From the NCBI GenBank assembly GCA_016874675.1, contig VGTL01000071.1, forward strand, positions 1-16,951: a stretch of DNA of 16,951 nt. The letters are read 5' to 3'. A program made the position numbers and the translations under genes. Below are positions 427 through 16,951 of the stretch, one piece after another; positions within the stretch are counted from its first letter, which is position 1, and each line of letters begins with the position of its first letter. This DNA is from Methanobacteriota archaeon. Its GTDB lineage: Archaea; Thermoplasmatota; DTKX01; VGTL01. Below the pieces are notes generated by a model that saw only the letters and a program-made list of their open reading frames with translations, did not search any database and had not been told where the DNA came from.

Positions 427-822
427 TCAGCCCCGCCGCAGGCTCTCGATTCTTTCCCCGGTTGTCAGGCCCTCCTGCGACTCGATGTATTTTTCGACCA
501 CCTCCGCCCCGTGCCCCACCGACCCGTGGAAGCTCCCCGGCGACCACAGCCCGTCCTTGCACCACGTCTTCAGCTCGGGGAACCTCTCCCGCAAGAGCCT
601 CGAGCTCCTCCCCTTGATCTTCTTGGCTATCTCGCTCACCGAGTACCTCGGCGGGTACCTGTAAAAGATATGCACGTGCTCCGCCCCGATGGCCATCCTT
701 GTCACCTCAAGACCCATCTCCCCGCATATCTTTAAAATCGCATTCCGGGCGTACTCGCGTATCCCCGGCCTCAATACCGCTCCCCGGTACTTCGGGCAGA
801 ACACGGGATGGTCCGCGAGCAT
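427..822 (-). CDS. tnpA: IS200/IS605-family transposase TnpA (HuH Y1 transposase)
   Basis: The translation has the family hallmarks. FCPKYR is near the N-terminus. HVHIF is the HuH motif. KGRSSRLLRERFPELK, LWSPGSFHGSVG and the C-terminal EKYIESQ follow; the tyrosine in EKYIESQ is the presumed catalytic Tyr. Size (~131 aa from the ATG at 822) fits the family. The ORF track extends it to a TTG at 876; the start is ambiguous. Confidence 0.85.
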   Translation of the reverse strand: MLADHPVFCPKYRGAVLRPGIREYARNAILKICGEMGLEVTRMAIGAEHVHIFYRYPPRYSVSEIAKKIKGRSSRLLRERFPELKTWCKDGLWSPGSFHGSVGHGAEVVEKYIESQEGLTTGERIESLRRG

Positions 823-838
823 CGATGTCGAGTGCCTG

Positions 839-1093
839 TCACGCCTGAGCTTCAATTCCCGTCCCCTCCGTTCCAACCGTCCGGCCGGCGAGCTGGCATA
901 TCCCGGCGACCGGGATCTTCCCCTCCAGCACGTCCAGGACCTTCTCGATGGACACCACCATGTTCACCCATTCCCTCCCGTCCTTTGTAACGAACCTGTC
1001 CGCCAGCAAAAACGCTTCCAAGTTGATGTCGAGCTTCAGCGCGCGCCCGCGTCTGCTGCGCCGCAGATATCCGATGTGATTGACGACCTTCAT
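839..1093 (-). CDS. hypothetical small basic protein (84 aa) immediately upstream of tnpA
   Basis: ATG at 1093 (minus strand) is preceded by the SD-like sequence gtgagg 5 nt upstream and a TATA-like ttcaaatac about 35 nt upstream. Its stop lies 17 nt before the tnpA ATG. I do not recognise the family; it could be an IS-associated accessory ORF or a gene remnant. Confidence 0.3.
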   Translation of the reverse strand: MKVVNHIGYLRRSRRGRALKLDINLEAFLLADRFVTKDGREWVNMVVSIEKVLDVLEGKIPVAGICQLAGRTVGTEGTGIEAQA

Positions 1094-1409
1094 GAGCCTC
1101 ACATCATTTGAAGACCCGTAACCTGTATTTGAACCGTGCGGGGGGGTGGATGAAACTGCAACCGCAAGCCCATGAAAAAGCCTAATACCCTCGAGGCATA
1201 ATATCCACGCTGGAAGGTGAACGCACCGTGCGTGGCGAAGGGCCCGCAAGCCGATTCGGCCAGGGCTGCCCCGGCAACGACCCCGGAGGAGTCATGACGC
1301 CGCCCCCCGAAGCCATGTCGCGGGCGCGTCCCCTGGCTGTCGCCCAGGCATGCCATCACCAGCCCAACGCACGGGTAGGAACAAGCCCCCCCTGACCGGA
1401 GCCACCGAA

Positions 1410-2255
1410 ATGCCCTGCGTCGTCTGCCACAAGCCCGTCCCGCCCCGCTGCCTGTACTGCCCTCGCCACCGCCGCTTCGGCCTCCTGGCCTCCGACGACC
1501 AGTCCATTTTGGAAATCAGGTTCGCGATGATCGCCGGCTGGGTCCCGGCGCTCGACGGCTTCGTCTGCGAATACTGCGGCCGTCTCCTGGACGAGACCGA
1601 CCCGGGACGCGACGACTACGCCGGCTTCGACCACATCGTCCCCGGCGAGAGGCGCCTCGCGACTTGCTGCCGCCGGTGCAACTCGATGAAGAACGCCCTC
1701 ACCGGCATCGAGTTCCGGACCGTCGTCCCCGCCCTGGCCGACCTCTGGCTGGAGGGCGTCCCTTTCAAGAAGGACATCGTACAGTTCGAGCGCTGGGACT
1801 GGAGGCGGCTCGCGCCGGCCGCGCCGGCGCCCCCTCGCGGGGTCGCCCCGTTCGAAGCGCAATTGAAAAAGTACGCCGACTGCCTGGTCTGCCACGGCAT
1901 TCTCTACCCCAGGTCGCGCTACTGCGCCCGCTGCCGGAGGTTCATAACCTCCCAGCGCGAGAACGCCGCCCGCTGCAAGGCGATGGTCGTCTCCTGGGAC
2001 CCGGTCGCGAAGGGCTTCCGCTGCCTGTATACCGGCGTCCTCTTGGACCTCCACAACCCGAAAAGCCCCTGGTACCTGACGTTCGACCACCTCGTCCCCG
2101 GGAGGGCCCCGTTGGCGGTCTGCGCCGCATGGGTCAACCGCATGAAGGGGTCGATGGCCGAGCCCGCCTTCCGCGCCCTGATACCGAACCTCGCCCGGCA
2201 CATGCGCACGGGTGCCCCCCTCGCCCCCGTTAGAATCCGCCACCCCCCTATTTAA
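1410..2255 (+). CDS. tandem-duplicated HNH endonuclease-domain protein with CxxC zinc-ribbon pairs
   Basis: Module 1 reads CVVCHK..CLYCPRH..CEYCG..FDHIVPG..CCRRCNSMKNAL, a classic HNH signature (DH..N plus a CxxC zinc site). Module 2 reads CLVCHG..YCARCRR..FDHLVPG..CAAWVNRMKG; His and Asn are retained but the CxxC is lost. The ATG at 1410 has a ggag SD 9 nt upstream. An alternative ATG at 1350 would add a low-complexity 20-aa extension. Confidence 0.7.
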   Translation: MPCVVCHKPVPPRCLYCPRHRRFGLLASDDQSILEIRFAMIAGWVPALDGFVCEYCGRLLDETDPGRDDYAGFDHIVPGERRLATCCRRCNSMKNALTGIEFRTVVPALADLWLEGVPFKKDIVQFERWDWRRLAPAAPAPPRGVAPFEAQLKKYADCLVCHGILYPRSRYCARCRRFITSQRENAARCKAMVVSWDPVAKGFRCLYTGVLLDLHNPKSPWYLTFDHLVPGRAPLAVCAAWVNRMKGSMAEPAFRALIPNLARHMRTGAPLAPVRIRHPPI

Positions 2256-2323
2256 GCGGCCCCCCCTATCCCATCCAAGGTCCCCCCCATCCCATTTAAA
2301 TTCCACTATTATATCAAAAATTG

Positions 2324-2348
2324 CTTATATGTGTATATATCATATAAC
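2324..2348 (+). promoter_or_regulatory. putative archaeal TATA/BRE region for the giant surface-protein gene
   Basis: An A/T-rich island (cttatatgtgtatatatcatataac) sits in otherwise GC-rich DNA 30-55 nt upstream of the ATG at 2378. An SD-like aagggag lies between it and the ATG. Confidence 0.45.
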
Positions 2349-2377
2349 ACCCGACGAACCCAAGGGAGCGTCTTCGC

Positions 2378-5300
2378 ATGAGAGGCAGTACCACTCGTAG
2401 GGCCGTCCTTTTCGCTGCAATGCTGCTACTGGGCAGCGTGGTCATCCTCACCCCGCCGGCCGCGGCCGCCGGCTGGACCAAGACCGACATGGGCATGCCC
2501 TACAGCCCTCTGGGCAGCTACGGCATGATGGGCATCGCCGTCGGCAACGGGGACGGCGTCAACGGGACCGACATATTCACCATCTGCGGCGACAACGCCC
2601 GCATCTACATGTACCGCTACGAGGCCGGCAAGTGGGTGACCACCGATGTGGTCCAGCTCATACGGGGCAGCTCGGTCTACGCCAACGCGATACTGATAGG
2701 CGACGGCGACGACGACGGAAACGACGAGGTGTACGCCACCGCCACGAACTACTCGTCGTTCCCCTACCAGGGCCGCCTGTTCCAGGTCCAAAACGGCACC
2801 AACGGCTGGAAGAGGACCGACTGCGGCGCCACGGGCTACTGGTGCTACGACCTTGCCTCCGGCGACGGCAACCGTGACAGCTCCAAGGAGGTCTACTCGG
2901 CCGACTACGACGGCCACATCTACGAGTACTCGAAGGGCCAGACCTGGAACTCCCAAGACATCGGCAGCTCTCCCGGGTTCGTGTACGGCGGCTACACCTA
3001 CTCCACCCGGATGAACGGTGTGGCGGTGGGCGACGGCGACAACGACGGGAAGCTCGAGGTCTACGGCGCCTCCTCGGACAACCACATCTACATGTTCACC
3101 TACTCGGGCTCGGCCTGGTCCCGGACGGACATGGGGACGGGCGAGACGCCCCAGTACTGGTACTACGGGATGCAGAAGCTCGTCGTGGGCGACGGCGACA
3201 ACGACGGCAAGAACGAGGTGTACGGCGCCTCCTACTTCAACGGGACGATCTGGCGCTACAAGTGGGACACCTCCACCTCCAAGTGGGGCATAACGAAGCT
3301 GGCATCGCTGGGCACCGGGATCACGGCCAACGACATCTGCATCGGGGACGGGAACTCCGACGGGAAAAACGAGATATACGTCGGGACGAGCAACCGGCAG
3401 GTATACGAGGTCCGGCTCAACTCGGGCAACTGGGAGTACTCCGCCGTGGGCTCCGGCAACGGCGCGATAACCGGCGTCGGGACGGGCACCGTGACCGAGG
3501 ACACGAGCGTCCTGGAGGTGTTCGCCTCCTCCGGCGACGGCCACGCCTACGAGTTCTACAACGACGCGGTGCCCCCGGCCAACCCGTACGTGTGGAGCGA
3601 CACGCACCCCGACCAGGGCACCTGGTACGCCAAGAGCAAGGTCCACGTGATGTGGAAGGACGTGGGCTACGACCGCAGCGGCATAGACGGCTACTCGGTC
3701 GATTGGGACAAATCCTCCGAGACGGTCCCCGACGAGGCCAAGGACTTCGAGCAGAGCGTCCACGAGGACACCCGGAACCTCGAGGACGGCCTCTGGTACT
3801 TCCACATCCGCGCCCGCGACAACTCCCTCAACTGGAACAAGACCGCCACGCACTTCGGCCCGATACGCATCGACACCAGACCCCCCGACGGCCTGCAGAT
3901 AACGGTGAACGGCGGCGCCGAGTACACCAACGACAAGCTGGTGACGCTCTCCCTGACGGCCTCGGACGCCGGCTCGGGCGTGGCGTCCATCTCGTTCAGC
4001 AACGACGGCTCCACCTGGAGCGAGTGGGAGTCGTTTTCGGCCACGCGCGGCGGCTGGGACCTCACGGACCCCCGCTTCGGCGCAAACGGCTCGGACGGGC
4101 CCAAGACCGTGCACGCCAGGATAAGGGACCTCGTGGGCAACGAGATCCCAGCCGACAGGCGCGCAAGCGACGGCATCTTCCTGGACCGGGTGGCGCCCCA
4201 GGGGCTCGCCATCGTCGTCAACGGCGACGCCACCTACACCGCCTCCGCACAGGTGTCGCTCTCGCTCAAGGGCTACGACCCCGATCCCGCCTCGGGGCTG
4301 TCCCAGATGTCGTTCAGCAACGACGCCGCCACCTGGGGCGACTGGACCCCCTGGAGCGAGTCGGCCTCCTGGTCCCTGGTCGCCGGCGCCGGGGGCACCG
4401 ATTCCGACGGCACCAAGATAGTGTATTTCCAGCTGCGCGACCGGGCCGGCAACGTCGGGGGCCCGGCCAAGGACTCGATATTCCTGGACCGCCGGGAGCC
4501 CGGGAGCCTGTCCATCCTGATCAACGACGGGGAGGATTACACCAACAACGCCCTCGTGACGCTCAGGATGGACGCCGTGGACCCGGACCCCGGCTCGCAG
4601 CTTGGGGACATGACGCTCGCCAACGCCGAGTCCTCCCTGGGCGACTGGGAGCCCTTCTCCAAGTCCAAGGGCGGCTGGAGCCTCGTCTCCGGGATGGGCG
4701 GCACGGACACCGACGGCGACAAGCTCGTGTACCTCAAGGTCCGCGACAACGCCGGCAACATCGGGGGCCCGGTCAGGGACTCGATATTCCTCGACCGCGT
4801 GAAGCCCTCGGCGCTGGGGATAATGATAAACGGGGGCGCCAAGTACGCCACGAGCCGGGACGTGATGCTGTCGCTTCGGGCCGTAGACGCCGACCCGTCT
4901 TCGGGGATAAGCCGCATGCAGTTCAGCAACGACGGCATCGTGTGGACGGACTGGGAGCCCTACACCCCCGACCGGACCTACACCCTCCCGGCGCCCGACG
5001 GCGAAAAGACCGTCCACTTCCGGGTGCGCGACCGCGCCGGCAACATCGCCGACGCCGTCTCCGCCTCCATAATCCTTGACACCGCCGGGCCGGTGATAGC
5101 CAACGTGCGCGTCTCGGCGCTCACCGACACGACCGCCCTCATAACCTGGACCACGGACGAGGATTCCGACTCGCTTGTCGAGTTCGGACTGAGCGCGAAC
5201 TACGGCTCCTCCGTCCCCGTGAATGACTTCGTCACCTCTCACTCGGTGTGGCTCAAGGGCCTGGCCCCGACCACCACCTACCATTTCCGGGTCCAGTCGC

Positions 5301-7528
5301 GCGATCTTGCGGGCAACCCGCCCACCGTCACGGGCGATTACATCTTCATCACCACGGCCACGCCGGACACCACCCCGCCCTCCATAAGCAACCTGGCGGT
5401 CTCCGGGATAGCCGACACGCTGGCCGTGGTCACCTGGACCACCAACGAGCCCGCCGACAGCGTCGTGCAATACGGCACGGACTCTTCCTACGGCCTGAAG
5501 GTCTCCGACCTCAAGAACTTCGTGCTCAAGCACAGCCTGACGCTGACCAACCTGCAGCAGTCCACCACCTACCGGCTGCGCGCCTACTCCATCGACCCCA
5601 GCGGCAACGGTCCGGCGCAGAGCGAGGAGATATCCTTCACGACGCTCGCCACCCCCGACACCCGGGCGCCGGTCATATCCAACGTCAGGGTCTTCGGCAT
5701 CACCGACCGGGTGGCCGTGGTGACCTGGGAGACCGACGAGCCGGCCGACGGGGCCGTCGAGTTCGGCACCGACGCGTCCTACGGCTCGAAGGCCGCCCAC
5801 GTCGGCATGGGGGCGCTCCACGAGGTCACGTTGCTCAACCTGGTGCCTCGGACGACCTACCACTTCCGCGTGCTCTCGGGCGACGCCAGCGGCAACGGGC
5901 CGGGCGCTAGCGAGGACTTCTCGTTCACGACGCTCGCCGAGCCCGACACGACAGCCCCCAGGATATCGAACCCCCGGGTGGTCGCCGTGACGCGGACCGG
6001 CGCCACGGTGCTCTGGGAGACCGACGAGATAGCCGACGGGTTCGTGGAGTACGGGACGACCACCGCCTATGGCCTGTCCTCCTCCGCCTCGGAGTACTCG
6101 CTCAGCCACAGCCTGCCCCTCAACGGCCTTTCGCCCGACACGCTCTACCACCTGCGCGTGCGCTCTGCGGACCCCAGCGGCAACCTGGGGATCGGCCCCG
6201 ACGTCACCTTCCGCACGCTCAAGACCCCCGCCGGGCAGGACCTCGTCCCGCCGGTGATATCGGCCCTGCAGGTCACCGGCGTCACGAACAGGCTTGCGAT
6301 TGTCATCTGGACGACCGACGAGCCGGCCAACGCCGAGGTCGAGTACGGGACGACCACCGCCTTTGGCCTGCGCGCGAGCGACCCGGCATACACCTACTAC
6401 CACAGCATCACCATCGACAACCTCCAGCCCTCGACGGATTACGTGCTGAGGGTCCGCTCGTTCGACATCCCGGGCAACGGCCCGACCGTCAGCGCCGAGG
6501 TCCGCTTCACCACGAAGGCGACCCCCGACACCACCGCGCCCCGGATAACCGCCGTCACCTTCTCCAACCTGACCAACACGAGCGTTCTTGTGACCTGGAC
6601 CACGGACGAGCCCTCCGACAGCCTGGTCGAATACGGCACGAGCGTGTTCTACGACCGGAACCAGACCTCGAGGCTCTTCGTGCTCGAGCACGCCATCCTC
6701 GTCACCGGCCTGGAGCCGGGCACCACCTACCACTTCCGGGTCCGGTCGACCGACCCCAGCGGGAACACCGCCGACCCGAGCGCCGACCAGAGCTTCACGA
6801 CGCTCAGGAAGTACACCCCGCCGGGCGGCGCGAAGCCGGCCCCGACGGGCGGCGAGTTCCCGTGGCTCTGGGCGGCCATTGCCGTCATAATCGTGGCGCT
6901 CGCCGTCGGGCTGTACGCGGCGAGCCGCTCCGGGCCGAGGAAGCTCCCCCCGAAGGCGCTGGACGAGCCGCGGCCCGAGCCGCGCCCGGAGGCGCCGCCG
7001 GTCGAGGCACGGTCCGCCGCGCTCGAGTCGATATCGGAGATCCCGGTGGCCGAGGCCGAAGTGGTCGAGACGCTCGACATGGACGAGGGCCCGGAGCCAG
7101 CCGGCGTGCGGCCGGCGGCCTTCGCCCCGGCCCCCCGGCCCGCCCCCGAGCCCCTGCGCCACATCCGCTGCCCCTCGTGCAAGACCCGCATCCCGATATA
7201 CAAGGAGGGAGCGCAGCAGATCACCTGCCCGGGCTGCGGAAGGACGGGCCCGTACCGGCCGAAGGCGGTCGGGACGCTCTACGCAACGGAGGCAGCGGCG
7301 CCCGAACCGCCGGCGCCTCCGGCGCCGGCGGCTTCCCCGGTGCACGCGGGCGCACCCTCGCCGATAGGAGAAGCCGCCCCGCAGGGCGGCGCGCAGACGC
7401 CCGTCCGCATGACCCGCTGCTCGGGCTGCGGGAGCCAGGTGCCGATATACAGCGACAACTACCCGGTCAGGATAACCTGCCCCGGCTGCGGAAGGAGCGG
7501 GATGTATAAAGGGCCGAGGAGATACTGA
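2378..7528 (+). CDS. giant secreted cell-surface protein (1716 aa), C-terminally membrane-anchored with a cytoplasmic double zinc-ribbon tail
   Basis: The N-terminus is a signal peptide (MRGSTTRRAVLFAAMLLLGSVVILTPPAAAAG). Four or more FG-GAP-like repeats follow (GDGDDDGNDEVY, VGDGDNDGKLEVYGA, VGDGDNDGKNEVYGA, IGDGNSDGKNEIYVG). Five ~100-aa repeats of the form DR(V/R)xP..L.I.VNGGA.YT......L.L.A.D..SG...M.FSND...W..WE follow. Then come six FN3/purple-acid-phosphatase-N-like repeats (W.TDEP.DS.VEYG......Y.H...L..L.P.T.Y..RV.S.D..GN). A single TM helix (FPWLWAAIAVIIVALAVGLYAA) precedes a Pro-rich tail containing two C-P-x-C-x(14-16)-TCPGCGR zinc ribbons. Codon bias is consistent throughout. Confidence 0.9.
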   Translation: MRGSTTRRAVLFAAMLLLGSVVILTPPAAAAGWTKTDMGMPYSPLGSYGMMGIAVGNGDGVNGTDIFTICGDNARIYMYRYEAGKWVTTDVVQLIRGSSVYANAILIGDGDDDGNDEVYATATNYSSFPYQGRLFQVQNGTNGWKRTDCGATGYWCYDLASGDGNRDSSKEVYSADYDGHIYEYSKGQTWNSQDIGSSPGFVYGGYTYSTRMNGVAVGDGDNDGKLEVYGASSDNHIYMFTYSGSAWSRTDMGTGETPQYWYYGMQKLVVGDGDNDGKNEVYGASYFNGTIWRYKWDTSTSKWGITKLASLGTGITANDICIGDGNSDGKNEIYVGTSNRQVYEVRLNSGNWEYSAVGSGNGAITGVGTGTVTEDTSVLEVFASSGDGHAYEFYNDAVPPANPYVWSDTHPDQGTWYAKSKVHVMWKDVGYDRSGIDGYSVDWDKSSETVPDEAKDFEQSVHEDTRNLEDGLWYFHIRARDNSLNWNKTATHFGPIRIDTRPPDGLQITVNGGAEYTNDKLVTLSLTASDAGSGVASISFSNDGSTWSEWESFSATRGGWDLTDPRFGANGSDGPKTVHARIRDLVGNEIPADRRASDGIFLDRVAPQGLAIVVNGDATYTASAQVSLSLKGYDPDPASGLSQMSFSNDAATWGDWTPWSESASWSLVAGAGGTDSDGTKIVYFQLRDRAGNVGGPAKDSIFLDRREPGSLSILINDGEDYTNNALVTLRMDAVDPDPGSQLGDMTLANAESSLGDWEPFSKSKGGWSLVSGMGGTDTDGDKLVYLKVRDNAGNIGGPVRDSIFLDRVKPSALGIMINGGAKYATSRDVMLSLRAVDADPSSGISRMQFSNDGIVWTDWEPYTPDRTYTLPAPDGEKTVHFRVRDRAGNIADAVSASIILDTAGPVIANVRVSALTDTTALITWTTDEDSDSLVEFGLSANYGSSVPVNDFVTSHSVWLKGLAPTTTYHFRVQSRDLAGNPPTVTGDYIFITTATPDTTPPSISNLAVSGIADTLAVVTWTTNEPADSVVQYGTDSSYGLKVSDLKNFVLKHSLTLTNLQQSTTYRLRAYSIDPSGNGPAQSEEISFTTLATPDTRAPVISNVRVFGITDRVAVVTWETDEPADGAVEFGTDASYGSKAAHVGMGALHEVTLLNLVPRTTYHFRVLSGDASGNGPGASEDFSFTTLAEPDTTAPRISNPRVVAVTRTGATVLWETDEIADGFVEYGTTTAYGLSSSASEYSLSHSLPLNGLSPDTLYHLRVRSADPSGNLGIGPDVTFRTLKTPAGQDLVPPVISALQVTGVTNRLAIVIWTTDEPANAEVEYGTTTAFGLRASDPAYTYYHSITIDNLQPSTDYVLRVRSFDIPGNGPTVSAEVRFTTKATPDTTAPRITAVTFSNLTNTSVLVTWTTDEPSDSLVEYGTSVFYDRNQTSRLFVLEHAILVTGLEPGTTYHFRVRSTDPSGNTADPSADQSFTTLRKYTPPGGAKPAPTGGEFPWLWAAIAVIIVALAVGLYAASRSGPRKLPPKALDEPRPEPRPEAPPVEARSAALESISEIPVAEAEVVETLDMDEGPEPAGVRPAAFAPAPRPAPEPLRHIRCPSCKTRIPIYKEGAQQITCPGCGRTGPYRPKAVGTLYATEAAAPEPPAPPAPAASPVHAGAPSPIGEAAPQGGAQTPVRMTRCSGCGSQVPIYSDNYPVRITCPGCGRSGMYKGPRRY
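3872..5090 (+). repeat. four tandem ~306-nt intragenic repeats encoding ~102-aa Ig-like domains
   Basis: The period is exactly 306 nt between 4445-4493 and 4751-4799, which are about 90% identical at DNA level (gccggcaac.tcgggggcccgg..ca.ggactcgatattcct.gaccgc). A more diverged copy lies upstream at 3578-3871. Confidence 0.7.
5083..6830 (+). repeat. six tandem ~290-nt intragenic repeats encoding FN3/PAP-N-like domains
   Basis: A ~96-aa unit recurs, each ending in the linker TT(L/A)ATPDTT(A/P)P. The DNA-level period is 288-291 nt: compare 5361, 5651, 5939 and 6520, each reading acgccggacacc or acccccgacacc. Confidence 0.7.
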
Positions 7529-8344: not shown

Positions 8345-8540
8345 GGGGCAAGGGAGCGAGGGAAAAGGCAGCAAGGCAGCAAGGCAGCAAGGCAGCAAGG
8401 GAGAAAGGGAGCCGGGACGCCGCGTTTCAGTCCCCCGTTCCCTTTCACCGTTTCTCCCTTGCTCCCTTGCTGCCTTGCTGCCTTGCTGCCCTGCTGCCCT
8501 GCTGCCCTGCTGCCTTTTCCCTCGCGCCCTGCGCCTTGCC
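8345..8540. repeat. large imperfect GC-rich palindrome built from tandem octamers (GGCAGCAA x4 / TTGCTGCC and CTGCTGCC x6-7)
   Basis: gcgagggaaaagg (8357-8369) is the exact reverse complement of ccttttccctcgc (8515-8527). Between them lie (ggcagcaa)4 on the left and (ttgctgcc)3(ctgctgcc)3 on the right. Near the centre, gggagaaaggg (8399-8409) pairs with ccgtttctccc (8449-8459). The centre is around 8430. It sits between the divergent thiD and DUF116-like genes. Confidence 0.85.
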
Positions 8541-10000: not shown

Positions 10001-10176
10001 GGAGGAAGGCGCGAGGCGCAGGGCGCAAGGCTTGGGGGGAAAGGCGCAAGGGAAAAGGGACAAGGGGGAAGGGCGGCGGGGACAGCGCGACCCCCCGGGC
10101 CCCTTTCCCCTCGCGCCATGACCCTTGCGCCTTGCGCCCTGCGCCCTGCGCCTTCCCTCGCGTCTTCCCGCGTCCT
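10001..10176. repeat. large imperfect GC-rich palindrome, GGCGCAAG/GGCGCAGG-unit variant
   Basis: The left arm reads ggcgcgaggcgcagggcgcaaggc..ggcgcaagggaaaaggg. The right arm reads cccttgcgccttgcgccctgcgccctgcgccttccctcgcg. The centre is around 10085. It shares the gggaaaagg / caaggg core with the other two elements. Confidence 0.8.
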
Positions 10177-10732: not shown

Positions 10733-10897
10733 GGGAGCAAGGGAGAAAGGCAGCAAGGCAGCAAGGCAGCAAGGCAGCAAGGCAGCAAGGCAGAAAGGCA
10801 GAAAGGGAGGCAGGAAGGCAGCAAGGGGGGACGTGAAGAGCCGTCGTTCCGCTGCCCTGCTGCCTTTCTGCCTTCCTGCCTTGCTGCCTTTCCCTAG
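10733..10897. repeat. large imperfect GC-rich palindrome, GGCAGCAA-unit variant (asymmetric; left arm has ~4 extra units)
   Basis: The left arm reads gggagcaagggagaaagg(cagcaagg)5 cagaaagg cagaaaggg aggcaggaaggcagcaagggggg. The right arm reads cgctgccctgctgcctttctgccttcctgccttgctgcctttccctag. The outer gggagaaaggcagcaagg pairs with ccttgctgcctttccc. It fills the whole gap between the convergent stops at 10726 and 10894. Confidence 0.85.
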
Positions 10898-11283: not shown

Positions 11284-11376
11284 CGGGGCCCGAATCGCCC
11301 TGCCGCACTATATATCCGTTCCCGCCCGCAGTATTAATATATGATAAACTGTAATTGCCTCCCGAGAGGGAGCCGC
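11284..11376. promoter_or_regulatory. divergent promoter region with two TATA-like boxes
   Basis: cactatatatcc (11306-11317) serves the minus-strand thioredoxin. agtattaatatatgataaa (11330-11348) serves the plus-strand array; an SD-like gagggag lies 5 nt before the ATG at 11377. Confidence 0.5.
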
Positions 11377-11856
11377 ATGGGTTTGATGAACACCTATTAC
11401 ACGTATGTGCACGGAAAAAGGAAGGAGGACGACATCGCGGTGCGAAAGCGCATCGTCTCCGAGATACAGAAGTCCCGCACCAACATCATCAACATGCTGG
11501 AGGAATCGTCGGTCTCGAAGCAGAAGGAGACCGTCGACTTCTGCCGGCGCGCGGTGGACGAGCTCGACGGCTTCGCAAACGAGGTCGACCTCTCCGAGAT
11601 GGGGCACCGCTACCCGTTCTTCTCCATCCAGCGGACCACCGACTCCGGGGCCATCGAGAAGCTCGTCGGCTTCGACCGCACGATAATCGACCGGATGCAG
11701 AACGTGACCGAGGCCACGCTGCGCCTGCACGACCTGATGATAGAGAGGAAGGCGGGCCTGGACGCCACGACCGAGCTCAAGAAGGTGAGGCAGTACATCT
11801 CCAACGCCCGGAACGCGTACAAGGACCGCCGGGACTTCATAAGGGGGCTGAGATGA
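11377..11856 (+). CDS. hypothetical ~159-aa predominantly helical protein; first gene of the zinc-ribbon/SPFH array
   Basis: The ORF shows good codon bias and has an SD. The ORF-track start at 11341 lies inside the TATA box and is rejected in favour of the ATG at 11377. Its stop overlaps the next gene's start (ATGA). No family is recognised. Confidence 0.6.
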   Translation: MGLMNTYYTYVHGKRKEDDIAVRKRIVSEIQKSRTNIINMLEESSVSKQKETVDFCRRAVDELDGFANEVDLSEMGHRYPFFSIQRTTDSGAIEKLVGFDRTIIDRMQNVTEATLRLHDLMIERKAGLDATTELKKVRQYISNARNAYKDRRDFIRGLR

Positions 11857-13400
11857 TGGTGTGGACCTGGAAGGAGTTCGACAACAAGGGCAACGTGGTC
11901 AACGACGTGGGGATGGTCGCCCGGCTCCTGAGCCAGACCGACATCCACGGGATACTCAGGCAGGATGTGATCGTCAACCCGGGCGAGGCGTGCGTGTTCA
12001 TCAAGGACGGCAAGATCGAGGACGTGATGACCCAGACGCGCCTCAAGGAGGTCGGGGGCGGGTTCATGAACTGGCTTCGGGGGAAGATGAGCGTCGGGAC
12101 GAACGTCAACCTGCTCTTCATCGACACCACGCCCATCGACCTCCAGTTCCCCATCGCGGCGACCACCAAGGACTACGCCGAGATAAAGGGCGCCTGCACC
12201 GTGCGCATCCAGATAATCCCCGAGAACGCCACGAAGATAATCAACATGATGAGGCGCGCCCCGGTCAAGTCCGACCTCGTCCCCGGCTTCCTCTGGGACA
12301 GCGTCCGCACCGGCCAGGTGCTCACCCGCGAGGTCATCCAGTCCCGGCTCAGCGAGGAGCTCGTGGCCACGGTTTTCACCGCGCAGATAGCGCAGTACAC
12401 CGCCCCCGAGTTCCGGGGCAACGTCGAGATACTGCGCAACATGGAGAACCAGGCCCAGCTCGAGATGAGGAAGTCTTTGGAGATGTGGGGGCTGAGCCTC
12501 CTGCGCCTCTTCACGGTCTGGGGCAAGACCGACTTCGACGGCGTGATGGCCGCCCAGAGGCAGTACTCGATGCAGCTCCAGTCGTGGGACGGGGTGCAGA
12601 ACCTCTACCACTCGGGCGTCCTGGCCGACCTGCGGCGCCAGCAGGAGAAGGCGATGACGGAGCAGGCCGACAAGTGGGCCCGGGTGCGCGGCGGGGTCGC
12701 CGGCGAGGAATCGGTGACGACCCAGCGCGTCATCTCGCAGAAGGACCGCGACCAGATAGCGGCCGAGGCCGACGTCAAGCGCCAGAAGACCACGGCGACG
12801 GGCCTCGAGGACATCGCCACCATGCGCACCGAGCAGGAGGTCAAGCGCATCGACATCCAGCACGGCCAGGACATGAAGATGAAGCGCGACGGGCTCGGCT
12901 TCGAGAAGGACAAGCAGATGACCCGGCTCGACGTCGAGGCGCGCGAGGACGAGCAGGACGCCGTCCAGATGAGGCGGCTCATCGAGATGAAGAAGGACAT
13001 GAAGAGCCACTCGGTGGACCAGGACATCCGGCGCCATGCCGGCATCGAGATGGAGTCCAAGCGGCTCGACTCGATGACCGCCATCGAGCTTGCGAAGCTC
13101 GAGGCCGAGAAGGCCAAGGCGCTGGCCCAGGCCGACGCCGAGAAGGCCCGGTACTCGATGGAGACCTTCACGCGCGCCGAGGACCGCGAGCGGGCCCACC
13201 AGTACCAGATGACCGGGCTGTCGTCGAACATGATGCAGGCCTCCAAGCAGGGCACGCCGCAGACGCTCGTGCAGGGCGGCGGCTTCACCTCGACCTCCAT
13301 CGGCCACGGGCCCGGGGGCGACGACACGACCATGTGCCCCAACTGCGGCGAGAAGGTGAGGAAGGGCAAGTTCTGCCTGAGCTGCGGCGCCAAGCTCTGA
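11853..13400 (+). CDS. SPFH/Band-7-like protein with charged coiled-coil region and C-terminal zinc ribbon (COG4260; B. subtilis YdjI-like)
   Basis: The N-terminal segments VIVNPGEACVFIKDGKIEDV and NVNLLFIDTTPIDLQFP match the conserved xPGxxAxFxxxGKI and LhFhxT blocks of the SPFH-with-Zn-ribbon family as I recall it. A long K/E/R/D/Q-rich helical segment follows. The protein ends in CPNCGEKVRKGKFCLSCG. The start is an ATG at 11853 with an aggggg SD. The other two forward frames over this span give R/G/P-rich nonsense. Confidence 0.75.
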   Translation: MMVWTWKEFDNKGNVVNDVGMVARLLSQTDIHGILRQDVIVNPGEACVFIKDGKIEDVMTQTRLKEVGGGFMNWLRGKMSVGTNVNLLFIDTTPIDLQFPIAATTKDYAEIKGACTVRIQIIPENATKIINMMRRAPVKSDLVPGFLWDSVRTGQVLTREVIQSRLSEELVATVFTAQIAQYTAPEFRGNVEILRNMENQAQLEMRKSLEMWGLSLLRLFTVWGKTDFDGVMAAQRQYSMQLQSWDGVQNLYHSGVLADLRRQQEKAMTEQADKWARVRGGVAGEESVTTQRVISQKDRDQIAAEADVKRQKTTATGLEDIATMRTEQEVKRIDIQHGQDMKMKRDGLGFEKDKQMTRLDVEAREDEQDAVQMRRLIEMKKDMKSHSVDQDIRRHAGIEMESKRLDSMTAIELAKLEAEKAKALAQADAEKARYSMETFTRAEDRERAHQYQMTGLSSNMMQASKQGTPQTLVQGGGFTSTSIGHGPGGDDTTMCPNCGEKVRKGKFCLSCGAKL

Positions 13401-13412
13401 GGGGGCGGTCCC

Positions 13413-15161
13413 TTGGCCACCCAGTGCCCGAAGTGCGGGGAGCGCATCCTGTTCCAGATGGAGCGCTGCCCCCGCTGCCAATCGCCGGCGGACCAACGGC
13501 CGCCGGAGGCGACGGACAACTACTTCGGCATGGGCCGCCGGGACCGCGCGAGGGACCGCACGGACGCGGGCGACCGGAGCGCCGGGCGGTCCGAGCGCGC
13601 CTCGCTCGAGGGGGAGTTGAAGGGCGGGACGGCGGACACGGGCCGCAACGTCGTGCGCTCCGAGCTCGACGGCTTCGTCAAGGGGCCGGACGGCTACCGG
13701 CCCGGCCCGGCCGCGCCGCCGGCGCCGGCGCCCACCCCGACCTACCACCAGCCGGCGGCCTACCGGAACCCCTATCTCGACCGGGCCAACCTGCCCGACC
13801 CGAGGGCGCAGTTCATGCCCCCGGCCCGGCCCCAGGAGCCCCTGCCGGGCACGACGCCCAGGCCACCGATGCAGGGCCCGATACCGAACCAGCCCTACCA
13901 GGGCGAGCGCGTGGGGCAGGCCGCCCCCGGGACGTTCGAGCGCATCGGCCTGGGCGCCGCGGGCTTCGCCACGGCCGAGTTCGTCCTCGACAACCGGTTG
14001 CCCGAGCTGGGCGAGGCGGACCAGGTGGCGTTCGATGCGCTGGGCATAGACATGAGGAGGCAGAAGAGCACGTTCTGCGAGAACGCCCAGGAGTGGACCG
14101 AGAGGCTGAGGGGCGGCGAGGAGATCCCGCCGGCGATACGGCAGGCCATAATCCAAAACGCCCGCGACGACCCGCATTTCCTGGGCGTGTTCCTGCCCGC
14201 GCAGGGGCTCTTCGTCAACGGAGCGGCCTTCCGCGACCCGATGGGCTCCGACAAGCCGCGGGTCGTCTCAACGGCCGTGCACGAGAAGATAGGCCACGGG
14301 TTCTGCAACACCTTCACGATGAAGGGCGACGAGGAGACGCGCGCCGGAAGCGCGCTCTTCCGCCTGGCCTCGACGTTCGGCCTCAAGCAGATCGACGAGC
14401 CCATGTACCCGCTCTGGTACCAGAAGAAGCAAATCTCCCTGCGCTCGTCCTTCTTCCTCGAGGAGGGGTTCGCCTCGTGGGTCCAGTACCACGTGATGCG
14501 ACTGATGGGGGCCCGCCACCCGGGCGCGGGCTACGACCGGGTGCCCACGCACGAGACGACCCCGGAGCGCCTGCTCGGGGACATCCAGGGGGCGGAGCAG
14601 AGGCTGGCCGGCGCGCCGATTGCCTACCGGACCCTGGAGGAGTACCTGGCCCGCTGGCTGAACAACGAGGCGGAGCGCCTGCGCGAGGAGGGCCTGCTGG
14701 AGTTCAGGGGAACGCGCCTGGAGACGGTCGACCAGGTGATGCGGCTGGCGCGCCAGTGCCTGGGCAGCCTGCTCTCCGACGGGAAACTGGGCCCATCCCG
14801 GGCCCAGGGCATGATGATGGCTCTGGAGGCCGCCGACCGCCTGTCGGACGTGCACCAGGCCGGCCTCCAGCTCCGCTACGAGGGCGGCTTCCTGATGATG
14901 GAGAGGCTCCGGGCCCTCTTCGGCGAGCGCTGCGTCCCGGCCGCGGTGCGCATCGCCGGCAACGTGCGCTACAACCTGGCGGCCGTTTCGGTGGATGACC
15001 TGACCAAGGCGGTCTCCGATCCGAACTACAACACCGACTGCCGGCTGGCGGCGATGCTCAGGCTCCCGGCGGCCGCAGCGCCCCGAAACGACGCAAGGCA
15101 GTTCGCAGGACTGGTGAACGAGAGGCTGGGCTACTCCGTCCCGGAGGGACTGGGAAACTAG
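13413..15161 (+). CDS. N-terminal zinc-ribbon protein with Pro-rich linker and uncharacterised ~380-aa C-terminal domain (contains HEKIGHG)
   Basis: The only possible start is a TTG at 13413, 4 codons after the upstream TGA and in the same frame, with a gagggggcgg SD. The zinc ribbon reads CPKCGERILFQMERCPRCQ. A P/A/Q-rich segment follows. The C-terminal domain carries VHEKIGHGFCN and EEGFASWVQYHV, a possible metal site. The family is not recognised. Confidence 0.7.
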   Translation: MATQCPKCGERILFQMERCPRCQSPADQRPPEATDNYFGMGRRDRARDRTDAGDRSAGRSERASLEGELKGGTADTGRNVVRSELDGFVKGPDGYRPGPAAPPAPAPTPTYHQPAAYRNPYLDRANLPDPRAQFMPPARPQEPLPGTTPRPPMQGPIPNQPYQGERVGQAAPGTFERIGLGAAGFATAEFVLDNRLPELGEADQVAFDALGIDMRRQKSTFCENAQEWTERLRGGEEIPPAIRQAIIQNARDDPHFLGVFLPAQGLFVNGAAFRDPMGSDKPRVVSTAVHEKIGHGFCNTFTMKGDEETRAGSALFRLASTFGLKQIDEPMYPLWYQKKQISLRSSFFLEEGFASWVQYHVMRLMGARHPGAGYDRVPTHETTPERLLGDIQGAEQRLAGAPIAYRTLEEYLARWLNNEAERLREEGLLEFRGTRLETVDQVMRLARQCLGSLLSDGKLGPSRAQGMMMALEAADRLSDVHQAGLQLRYEGGFLMMERLRALFGERCVPAAVRIAGNVRYNLAAVSVDDLTKAVSDPNYNTDCRLAAMLRLPAAAAPRNDARQFAGLVNERLGYSVPEGLGN

Positions 15162-15172
15162 AGGTCAGCAAG

Positions 15173-16627
15173 ATGCCGACGAACTTTTGCCCCGAGTGCG
15201 GCACCAGGGCGGTGCCGGGCCAGAAGTTCTGCGGGGAGTGCGGCGCCCGATTCTCGGGGGGGGACGCCCCTGCCGAGACCGACGCGGGGGCCGGCGCCCC
15301 GATCGCCGCGGTCCGCTCCGGGCTCTCCCCGGACGCCCCGCTGAAGGACTCGGTGGTCAGCCGCTCCACGGTCCGGGCCGGCGGCGCGATAGAGGGCTCG
15401 GCGATAGGCCGCTCCAACGTGAGGACGCAGTCTGCGGGCATCCGGGACACGGTGATCTCACACAGCACCATAACCCAGACGGAGACCCACCAGCACTTCG
15501 GCGAGTCGGTAGGCACGTACGATGCGCAGATGGACCTCGGCAAGACCGCCTACGAGGGGAACAACTGGCAGGAGGCGGTGGAGTTCTTCAACACCGCCCT
15601 CAAGATAGACGCCCGGGGCCACGCGCCCTGGTACTACAAGGGCCTCTCCTGCGCCGAACTGGGGCGGACGGACGAGGCCGTGACCAACCTGCGCCGGGCC
15701 CTCAAGCTGGCCGGCAAGGGTTGCCCCGGCCTGCTCGGCGAGGTGCGGGCCCTCGCCGAGAGGCTCGCCAAGCGGGGGGGGTTGCAGGAGGGCTCCGCCA
15801 ACGAGCTCGTCGCCAGGGCCAACGCCGAGCGCGCCCGGTCGGCCAACTACCAGGCGCAGGCCTCGTCCGGCAAGGAGCGGGGGCTCGCCCAGGCCCTGGC
15901 GCTGGACCTTCTGGTCATCCCCGGCCTGGGCTCGTCGATGAGGACCACCAAGGCCGTCGAGGGCCTCGAGAAGCGCCAGGCCGCCGACAAGCACGAGACC
16001 GAGGGGCGAAGGCTCGAGGAGCAGGCCAGGGGCCACGCCTCGGAGGCGGTCCGGCTCTACAACGCGTCCATCCGGCTCTGCAGCCTCGTTTTGGAGTTCG
16101 AAAAGCAAGACGAGTACAGCCTGCTCAAGCGCGGCGAGCTCTATTACCGGTTGAGGTTCTACGACGACGCCTGCAAGAGCTACGAGGAGCTGCTCGGGTT
16201 CTCCCCGGGCCACCCCGACGCGATCAAGATGAGGGCGATGTGCTTCAACGCCCTGGGCAAGCGCGCCCCGCCCCTGCCCAGCCTCGCCGAGCCACCCCAG
16301 CCCGAGGCGCCCCCTTCCGGCGGACGGCCCGGCCCCCTGATACCCCAACCGCTCCCGGCGGTCCACCGGACGGAGCCGGCGCCACCAGCGGCCGCTCCCG
16401 ACCAGCAACACGCGCAGGCGCCGACCCGTCCGGCGCCGGCTGCCATGGTGGCTTCACAGGCAATCCACGGCGCCCCCCAGTCACCGGTGACCGGCGCCGC
16501 CCCGCCCGCCCAGCCCCAAAACATCAACCCCTGCCCGTTCTGCAGGGGCGAGATGACGTTCGTGCGCTCTAAGGGGGTGTGGCAGTGTTCCTCCTGCAGG
16601 CAGTACAGCGCCAGACCGGCGCATTGA
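15173..16627 (+). CDS. zinc ribbon - TPR repeats - Pro-rich linker - zinc ribbon protein
   Basis: The ATG at 15173 lies 11 nt after the upstream stop, with a gaggt SD. The N-terminal ribbon is CPECGTRAVPGQKFCGECG. TPR-like helices follow (NWQEAVEFFNTALKIDARGHAPWYYKGLSCAELGRTDEAVTNLRRALKLA, and later YSLLKRGELYYRLRFYDDACKSYEELL). The C-terminal ribbon is CPFCRGEMTFVRSKGVWQCSSCRQ. Confidence 0.75.
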   Translation: MPTNFCPECGTRAVPGQKFCGECGARFSGGDAPAETDAGAGAPIAAVRSGLSPDAPLKDSVVSRSTVRAGGAIEGSAIGRSNVRTQSAGIRDTVISHSTITQTETHQHFGESVGTYDAQMDLGKTAYEGNNWQEAVEFFNTALKIDARGHAPWYYKGLSCAELGRTDEAVTNLRRALKLAGKGCPGLLGEVRALAERLAKRGGLQEGSANELVARANAERARSANYQAQASSGKERGLAQALALDLLVIPGLGSSMRTTKAVEGLEKRQAADKHETEGRRLEEQARGHASEAVRLYNASIRLCSLVLEFEKQDEYSLLKRGELYYRLRFYDDACKSYEELLGFSPGHPDAIKMRAMCFNALGKRAPPLPSLAEPPQPEAPPSGGRPGPLIPQPLPAVHRTEPAPPAAAPDQQHAQAPTRPAPAAMVASQAIHGAPQSPVTGAAPPAQPQNINPCPFCRGEMTFVRSKGVWQCSSCRQYSARPAH

Positions 16628-16648
16628 GGCCCCGTTCCCGCAAGGGAC

Positions 16649-16663
16649 AGGTTTATTATTTTA
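16649..16663 (+). promoter_or_regulatory. T-rich tract (gtttattattttaaa): terminator for the upstream gene and/or TATA box for the next
   Basis: It is the only A/T island in the 95-bp gap between 16627 and 16722. Confidence 0.3.
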
Positions 16664-16721
16664 AAGGTGGATTATACCCCCGCGACCCAGGGAAGGAATC
16701 CAACCGGAAGGATGTGATGAT

Positions 16722-16951
16722 ATGCCGATCTGCCAGTATTGTGGAGCCCCGATGGAAGGAATAGTCTGCCCGAGGTGCGGGGGCCAGGCCACGCCCGCTC
16801 CGGCCTCCAGCCCGCCGCCCGCATACGGCCAGGCGCCCTACGCGCCGCAGTACCCGCCGCAGCAGGCCCCGCCGCAGTACCCGCCCCAGCAGGCCCCGCC
16901 GCAGTACCCGCCGCAGCAGGCCCCGCCGCGGTACCCGCCCCAGCAGGTCCC
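16722..16951 (+). CDS. zinc-ribbon protein with tandem QYPPQQAPP repeats (3' partial; runs off the window)
   Basis: An ATG at 16722 opens with MPICQYCGAPMEGIVCPRCGG, then a Pro-rich stretch, then at least three and a half 27-nt repeats in frame. There is no stop before the window end. Confidence 0.55.
   Translation, partial: MPICQYCGAPMEGIVCPRCGGQATPAPASSPPPAYGQAPYAPQYPPQQAPPQYPPQQAPPQYPPQQAPPRYPPQQV
16848..16951 (+). repeat. 27-bp tandem repeat cagtacccgcc(g/c)cagcaggccccgccg (at least 3.8 copies, truncated by the window edge)
   Basis: Copies lie at 16848-16874, 16875-16901 and 16902-16928, with a partial copy at 16929 onward. Each encodes QYPPQQAPP. Confidence 0.85.

Follow-up and report, generated by a model that had tools for sequence, protein, structure and literature searches.

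The stretch of DNA studied here (the window; 16,951 nucleotides (nt) of contig VGTL01000071.1 of a Methanobacteriota archaeon) carries at its 3' end five genes in the same orientation, A to E, the second of which encodes an SPFH protein with a C-terminal zinc ribbon. Genes A and B form a conserved core across Thermoplasmatota that is usually translationally coupled. Because only this pair recurs widely, the five-gene array appears to be a lineage-specific elaboration of it. Positions are given in window coordinates unless a locus is named; locus L001 is the same DNA (JGI metagenome contig Ga0194126_10005698, 18.2 kb), has an offset of -1852 and reaches 1.2 kb past the 3' end of the window. The GC content of the window is 63-73%. 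With such a high GC content long spurious antisense open reading frames (ORFs) are common, and genes were therefore defined by homology. As protein-level homologues exist for all four, genes A-D are considered to be real.

Gene A (11377-11856, + strand) encodes a four-helix-bundle protein of 159 amino acids (aa), the conserved partner of the SPFH protein. Its stop codon and the start codon of gene B (11853-13400, +) share the sequence ATGA at 11853-11856; gene B might instead start at the second ATG (11856), as called on L020/L021, in which case it would overlap gene A by 1 nt. Protein B (515 aa) is a soluble SPFH protein. Its middle is charged and helical, and towards the C-terminus it has a conserved motif and a C4 zinc ribbon (C495, C498, C508, C511). 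The TGA of gene B ends at 13400 and is followed, after a 12-nt gap (GGGGGCGGTCCC), by gene C (13413-15161, +), which begins with TTG, not ATG. Its product of 582 aa consists of an N-terminal zinc ribbon, a disordered Pro/Arg-rich linker of about 150 aa and a zincin-like domain. The TAG of gene C ends at 15161 and an 11-nt gap (AGGTCAGCAAG) separates it from the ATG of gene D at 15173 (15173-16627, +), which encodes a putative scaffold or adaptor of 484 aa, built as ribbon, TPR, helical region, TPR, Pro-rich linker and ribbon. Gene E (16722-16951, +) is cut by the window end. At its full length (182 aa, L001 14870-15418) the product has a zinc ribbon, four QYPPQQAPP repeats and a C-terminal DUF4190-like domain with multiple transmembrane (TM) segments. 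The gap between the end of gene D at 16627 and the ATG of gene E at 16722 is 94 nt. Direct reading of the sequence showed purine-rich Shine-Dalgarno (SD)-like motifs (GGGGG, GAGGGGG and GAGGT) ahead of genes B, C and D. An earlier reading of the same DNA, made without database searches (the sequence-only reading), had described five same-strand genes with the ATGA overlap, the 12-nt and 11-nt gaps and SD-like motifs. This layout is confirmed, save that the gap before gene E had been counted as 95 nt, and the outline given there of the five products (a helical protein, an SPFH-ribbon protein, a ribbon-linker-domain protein, a ribbon-TPR-ribbon protein and a ribbon-repeat protein) holds throughout.

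In sequence of 65-70% GC, just two strong AT-rich islands border the A-D block, one at each end; the remaining AT-rich stretch within the block is coding sequence of gene B. The first island (GTATTAATATATGATAAACTGTAATTG, 11327-11357, +) lies 20-50 nt upstream of the gene A ATG at 11377 and is a candidate archaeal TATA box or promoter of an A-D operon. At the other end (16634-16676, +) a terminator-like hairpin at 16634-16648 is followed by the second island at 16646-16676, which together likely mark the boundary between the A-D unit and gene E. The hairpin was found in a terminator scan (at L001 14782-14796); it is suggestive only, as the number of terminators did not exceed that expected from shuffled sequence. 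Because of the position of the islands and the hairpin at the two ends of the block, we infer that genes A-D constitute one operon and that gene E probably has its own promoter. Of the single five-gene transcription unit that had been proposed, the tight coupling of A-D therefore stands, whereas a transcript that includes gene E, behind a hairpin and an AT-rich island, is doubtful. An Rfam scan of the window did not reveal RNA families.

The SPFH protein B and its partner A

Protein B matched the Pfam family PF01145 (Band_7/SPFH) over residues 40-217 with an E-value of 1e-5 and 26.1 bits, against a gathering cutoff of 23.6. The same family was matched by 19 of the 20 close members of the B family (best E-value 2.7e-8) and by 19 of 43 broader members. 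The sequence-only reading had called the 11853-13400 product SPFH-like and had named a profile search as the check, and by this check the assignment is borne out. It had further classed B with YdjI (COG4260), and this could not be maintained. PF13421 (Band_7_1, the YdjI type) was missing from the top 25 of the 38 families matched at E<=1 by the 20 close members and from the full list of 19 families matched by the 43 broader members (E<=0.01). Membership of B in the PF13421/YdjI family was rejected on these two scans.

Residues 250-440 of B, approximately, are charged. Between this region and the ribbon lies a conserved motif, AEKARYSMDTY..AEDRER.HQ...MQASKQ..P.TLVQGG, and the four cysteines of the ribbon itself (CPNCG..CLSCG) are invariant in the family. 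A TM segment was not evident in B (maximal KD19 1.04). An exhaustive profile search with B yielded 115 clusters at E<=1e-30 and 391 at E<=1e-10, with many full-length matches. The family is far larger than was implied by a first, word-indexed search, in which 29 relatives of B and 31 of A were found. In public databases its members are named only 'hypothetical' or 'zinc-ribbon domain-containing protein'. Where identical or related proteins carry an organism name, it is 'Euryarchaeota archaeon', 'Candidatus Thermoplasmatota archaeon' or 'Thermoplasmata archaeon', all of them metagenome-assembled genomes (MAGs), in keeping with the archaeal origin that had been supposed for the SPFH protein.

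Protein A was modelled confidently as a four-helix bundle (AF2 pLDDT 84), and its most conserved residues sit in a low-confidence loop of this model. In a fold search with A, neither PspA nor ESCRT-III was present among the top 60 matches. A showed neither an ESCRT-III-like helical hairpin fold nor a Snf7/PspA profile match that would place it in the ESCRT-III/PspA superfamily. At their N-termini, homologues of A bear a hydrophobic segment (KD19 up to 2.0) that is lacking in the protein of the window (0.24).

Gene neighbourhoods were read on 25 loci and compared by BLAST; the loci were grouped by divergence into about 11 lineages from Thermoplasmata, Poseidoniia (MGII) and MGIII. Gene A is located directly upstream of gene B in about nine of these 11 lineages (L001-L022 and L024). 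In most lineages the junction measures -8 to 0 nt, which corresponds to an overlap of 1-8 nt or a zero gap.

Accessory products C, D, E and F

In protein C the ribbon and the disordered Pro-rich linker are followed by a domain of about 400 aa. It contains the motif HEKIGH (290-295) and, 55 residues downstream, the invariant pair E350/E351 (EE, 350-351). M49 (DPP III) and the gluzincins of the MA clan were used as comparators for this domain. The HExxxH spacing of the motif is atypical for MA-clan peptidases, which have HExxH, and resembles that of M49. A Foldseek search with protein C was negative. The domain probably has a zincin-type peptidase fold, a putative assignment with only moderate support, where the sequence-only reading had left it as an unknown, putatively metal-binding domain. 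In L003 the position of gene C, between B and D, is occupied by a gene (2228-3274) for a non-homologous 348-aa protein with a GNC...GHAF pattern. As a weak hint, this protein could be a non-homologous replacement of a protease. The idea that a 'protease slot' is filled there by a transglutaminase-like enzyme stays a hint, as its sole support was a match to the Pfam transglutaminase core at E=0.044, and a match in the PDB was not obtained.

Protein D matched TPR_2 in three stretches (E=2e-15) and several other TPR models above their cutoffs. Its ribbons are located at residues 5-26 (Zn_Ribbon_1) and 454-475, and the N-terminal one is of the same CPxCG...KFCxxCG type as the ribbon of B. Orthologues of D are present in L010-12 (61% identity) and in L003 (35%), a lineage of 51% identity in which D co-occurs with A-B. 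TM segments were not evident in C or D.

A 27-nt (9-aa) unit encoding QYPPQQAPP is repeated four times in gene E. The full-length protein E ends in strongly hydrophobic TM segments (KD19 3.26); its match to DUF4190 (E=1.2e-5, 25.4 bits) remained below the cutoff of 35. The next gene, F (L001 15422/15632-16048, past the 3' end of the window), encodes two predicted TM helices and a soluble domain of about 110 aa. Its product did not match any family and is 43% identical to that of the gene directly after D in L010-12. The statement that no partner has a TM segment was thus wrong, as full-length E and F are membrane proteins. It was an artefact of the window end, because the TM tail of E and gene F lie past it.

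Neighbours of the A-B pair in relatives

In L004-6 and L022 the A-B pair is followed by genes for a 481-aa coiled-coil protein (G), GcvH, a 186-aa protein and a 393-aa ATPase. The 186-aa protein matched the Pfam Snf7 profile over nearly its whole length, below threshold (E=1.5e-3), and its profile did not match any ESCRT-III chain in the PDB. From this sub-threshold match and the gene context it is a probable ESCRT-III protein. The 393-aa ATPase has an MIT-like N-terminus (E=7e-4) followed by AAA and AAA_lid_3 domains. It aligned over its full length to the NCBIfam CdvC model NF041006 (E=3e-66, below the equivalog cutoff), whereas the Cdc48 and PAN models cover its AAA core only; its PDB matches were dominated by two-domain Cdc48 chains. 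By these alignments it is classed as CdvC/Vps4-like. Snf7-like and CdvC/Vps4-like genes were also found in L013, where they are convergent and adjoin G, and in L014, where they lie downstream on the same strand. The linkage between A-B and these genes has survived an inversion and insertions. The locus L003, arranged A-B-X-D-G, bridges the window-type and the ESCRT-linked loci. The sequence-only reading had suggested a membrane-remodelling or stress module. This is plausible, since relatives place A-B beside Snf7-like and CdvC/Vps4-like genes; the term 'undescribed' that accompanied it was overstated, given the survey of Makarova et al. (2024).

The G family (318-481 aa) comprises L003 4375-5652, L004 11938-13383, L013 12091-13461, L014 about 3290-4246 and L022 9976-11421. 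Its members contain repeated units with W-x-x-x-G-[FY]-x-[VT]-x-x-L-E and a conserved C-terminal domain, and did not match Pfam or NCBIfam models. The gene always lies between the SPFH gene and the Snf7-like and CdvC-like genes, and G is put forward as a candidate adaptor in the ESCRT system of Thermoplasmatota. The short motif of G is also found at the end of the ribbon proteins L023 7470-8438 and L024 5148-6029. A 501-aa protein of L016 aligned poorly with G and is left as a possible homologue. The genes for 186-, 385- and 445-aa proteins upstream in L024 were considered as Snf7, Vps4 and G; BLAST ruled this out, as they match neighbours in L023.

Other proteins flanking B are non-homologous ribbon-plus-TM proteins, three in L023 and one in L024, and TPR or HEAT proteins in L024, L025 and L007. 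Upstream of the SPFH gene in L023 (4331-5686) and L024 (1808-3145) lies a gene for a protein of about 450 aa that is repetitive and rich in Gly and Val in its middle and has a ribbon at its C-terminus. This gene forms a conserved pair with a gene for a coiled-coil protein with weak SMC-like matches (L023 3384-4331; L024 628-1785).

HerA/DUF87-type ATPases together with a DO-GTPase2-like or large P-loop protein adjoin A-B in L016 (14435-17721, -), L017 (3038-7877) and L018 (3923-8763), loci that belong to a 'Methanobacteriota' MAG and to Poseidoniia and MGIII genomes. These genes could point to a system of biological conflict, directed against viruses, in which an SPFH scaffold is combined with a protease effector and a TPR sensor. 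PIN and DUF6036 genes downstream in L010 and the variability of the accessory genes, which is typical of defence islands, agree with such a role. However, PADLOC 2.0 did not find a match for the six products except a marginal TPR match (E=0.007), and no membership of a known defence system was found. The chromosomal context (thioredoxin, V4R, DUF116 and ThiD) is stable and common to relatives in which B is 89% identical, and the ESCRT/CdvC linkage points to membrane biology instead. A conflict system is therefore considered highly improbable.

Elsewhere in the window, a gene at 2378-7528 (+) encodes a 1716-aa surface protein with FG-GAP, fn3 and PhoD_N-like repeats, which is conserved in L010. 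Its one TM segment (aa 1494-1516) is followed by a cytoplasmic tail that is rich in Pro and contains two CxxC...CxxC ribbons (aa 1598 and 1681), which brings the window to seven ribbons in five proteins. Giant surface proteins beside A-B were ruled out as a conserved ribbon-bearing partner, as the tail ribbons occur in the window's clade only. At 8365-8516 and 10736-10890 mutually reverse-complementary 8-nt arrays were found, (AAGGCAGC)n facing (GCTGCCTT)n, and each pair could form a long hairpin. Both pairs are intergenic, one upstream of the DUF116 gene and the other between the V4R and thioredoxin genes. A (CCTTGCG)n array is present at 10101-10154. The repeat arrays of the window give rise to spurious ORFs with 'LAALLPCC' repeats. 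From reading of their translations, the ORF at 427-876 (-) resembles an IS200/IS605-type transposase and the gene at 1350-2255 (+) encodes a 301-aa protein with two similar halves, CxxC pairs and an HNH-like pattern.

A putative SPFH scaffold with ribbon-docked clients

In bacteria, archaea and eukaryotes alike, SPFH proteins organise membrane domains, and solved SPFH assemblies form rings or cups. To our knowledge, how soluble SPFH proteins arrive at the membrane and what they recruit is understood in one bacterial case only, that of YdjI/SamI with PspA. The overall picture that we consider moderately probable is that the A-D block is a lineage-specific elaboration of the A-B module, in which an SPFH scaffold holds ribbon-docked clients. 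Protein B, the middle of which is coiled-coil-like, would oligomerise by means of its SPFH domain and helical region, and the resulting ring or cup would sit on the cytoplasmic side of the membrane. Because B does not have a TM segment, partners would have to bring it there. In most lineages this partner is probably A, by means of its N-terminal hydrophobic segment. In the clade of the window A appears to have lost this segment, and there are two candidate anchors, protein E with its ribbon, linker and TM segments and the membrane protein F. These might recruit B in a way analogous to the recruitment of YdjI by YdjG and YdjH in Bacillus subtilis. Translational coupling would ensure that A is made in a fixed ratio with B, to which it probably binds through its invariant loop. 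The ribbons of B, C, D and E, carried on long flexible Pro-rich linkers, might serve as docking modules that gather clients on the scaffold. In the window's clade the clients would be C, a probable zinc metallopeptidase, and the two-ribbon TPR adaptor D, and the logic of such an SPFH-plus-protease arrangement would be comparable to that of HflK/C-FtsH or stomatin-STOPP. In one subclade of relatives the A-B core seems to be coupled instead to G and the ESCRT-III-like and CdvC/Vps4-like genes. Because of this coupling, A-B may be a membrane-domain platform for membrane quality control or remodelling.

Several observations weigh against this picture. A gene A is not found beside gene B in L023 and L025. 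In a comparison of the B profile with PDB sequences no solved SPFH chain was matched; only the ribbon was (9sfa_A and L32), and a sequence link of the SPFH domain to a solved structure was discarded. The three ESCRT-linked arrangements are about 40% identical to one another in B and may represent one subclade, that is, one evolutionary event. ESCRT-III or Vps4 genes are absent from the window contig (L001) and from the 10 kb on either side in L010-12, where B is 89% identical; that no PspA/ESCRT-III-like gene is visible in the window had already been remarked, and this extends to the whole of contig L001. Some of the clustering of ribbons could be background, ribbon proteins being common in archaea. 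Finally, the five-gene array that had been taken as the unit is not conserved. Only A-B is widespread, gene C is confined to 12 proteins of close relatives, all at least 51% identical, D was found in one further lineage, and E occurs in this species only and is absent from L010-12, where F directly follows D. The poorly conserved C, D and E may be loosely associated with the core.

The low conservation of C and E is also what would be expected if A-B were the only functional unit and C, D and E were unrelated, fast-evolving ribbon proteins that happen to be located downstream, closely packed because the genome is streamlined and not because they share a function. Nearly every lineage has different genes downstream of B, and gene E is preceded by the hairpin and the AT-rich island. 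Chance is opposed by the short gaps of 12 and 11 nt with their SD-like motifs and by the lack of an AT-rich island inside the block, which argue for co-transcription of A-D, and by the presence of D with A-B in a lineage as distant as L003 (51% identity). Moreover, B and D share the same ribbon subtype, and non-homologous ribbon, TPR or ribbon-TM proteins recur beside B (L023, L024 and L025), as modular docking predicts. We regard an A-B unit with chance neighbours as unlikely.

A close known counterpart is the PspA-YdjGHI (SamGHI) system of B. subtilis. There YdjI is recruited by the membrane proteins YdjG and YdjH, and PspA depends on YdjI for its location at the membrane (Scholz et al., 2021; PMC8581546). 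YdjI/SamI is without a TM segment, its middle is charged or of low complexity, and a zinc finger is located at its C-terminus (PMC8581546; Baur et al., 2026, SamGHI preprint). B is built in the same way, as a soluble SPFH protein in which a low-complexity, helical middle precedes a C-terminal zinc finger. In both systems the SPFH gene is accompanied by genes for ribbon- and TM-bearing proteins, by which the SPFH protein could be recruited, and the relatives of the window locus have a genomic link to an ESCRT-III-superfamily protein. Protein E, a ribbon-plus-TM protein, resembles YdjG, which is called a TM protein and for which the published primer encodes MIISYKCPNC (PMC8581546), in architecture alone. 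Together these likenesses would fit an envelope-stress module in which B is a true YdjI (COG4260) orthologue and the operon an archaeal pspA-ydjGHI, with another protein such as A in the place of PspA. The family profiles argue otherwise, B matching PF01145 (19 members in each of the two sets) and not PF13421, which is missing from the matches listed for both. The host is archaeal, and a PspA gene is present neither in the window nor on the contig. The fold search with A did not return PspA or ESCRT-III in its top 60. The partners in the window are the four-helix protein A, the zincin-like C and the TPR protein D, of which C and D are without counterpart in the Bacillus operon, and the link in relatives is to a Snf7-like protein and a CdvC/Vps4-like ATPase, not to PspA. 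An orthologous YdjI/PspA module is thus quite unlikely. As B is outside the YdjI Pfam family, it is tenable that B works like YdjI and not tenable that B is a YdjI.

Among archaeal systems, an SPFH, coiled-coil and zinc-ribbon protein (WP_013898576.1, Methanosalsum zhilinae) has been described in the 'Meth_adaptin' ESCRT loci (Makarova et al., 2024; PMC10936438). The same authors cited YdjI-PspA and proposed an ancient link between SPFH proteins and ESCRT-III. They described the Thermoplasmata ESCRT clade, from cultured Thermoplasmatales, as minimal, with Vps4, ESCRT-III and arCOG07400 and without SPFH (PMC10936438). B is likened to WP_013898576.1 by architecture: both are archaeal, share the three parts and, in the relatives L004, L013 and L014, B is near Vps4 and ESCRT-III genes. 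The window locus itself differs in being without an ESCRT gene, and adaptin-appendage, GOLD or ProX domains were not detected by Pfam in the window products or the scanned neighbours. The connection of an SPFH, coiled-coil and ribbon protein with archaeal ESCRT and the parallel with YdjI-PspA are therefore already published (Makarova et al., 2024; Scholz et al., 2021). We did not find described in the literature the partner A, the linkage of A-B(-G) to ESCRT genes in uncultured Thermoplasmatota, or the variant that bears the zincin-like and TPR proteins.

SPFH-protease pairs are known as HflK/C-FtsH, stomatin-STOPP/NfeD (PH1511-PH1510) and prohibitin-m-AAA, in which the scaffold is thought to control the access of substrates to the protease. 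The window operon resembles these in containing C, a putative zinc peptidase. It differs in that C is soluble, ribbon-tethered, non-AAA and zincin-like with HExxGH, B is not membrane-anchored, and an NfeD-type OB-fold partner is not present.

A more specific form of the scaffold picture is advanced tentatively and seems to us rather doubtful. Here A-B would be an unrecognised two-component SPFH platform, present throughout Thermoplasmatota, on which the C-terminal ribbon of B would dock ribbon-bearing clients of many kinds. In one subclade it would act, together with G, as the missing membrane-targeting or nucleation factor for the minimal ESCRT-III/Vps4 system of the Thermoplasmata type, and in the clade of the window it would have been rewired to a tethered HExxGH metallopeptidase and a TPR adaptor. 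If this platform exists, SPFH-ESCRT coupling would be an ancient, modular feature of archaea, parallel to the bacterial YdjI-PspA.

Together with its relatives, the locus marks out an archaeal SPFH family that is so far uncharacterised, counts hundreds of sequence clusters and has an obligate-looking small partner, A. The neighbours of B are interchangeable and ribbon-bearing, and include a putative protease, TPR proteins, membrane anchors and, in some relatives, ESCRT-III/Vps4. Should the docking idea be wrong, a well-conserved gene pair with lineage-specific neighbours remains. If modular docking is true, it would provide a testable handle on how ESCRT-III or proteases are targeted to membranes in Thermoplasmatota, an archaeal group whose ESCRT system is 'minimal' and without a known targeting factor in the published survey, and it would give more weight to an ancient connection between SPFH proteins and ESCRT-III.

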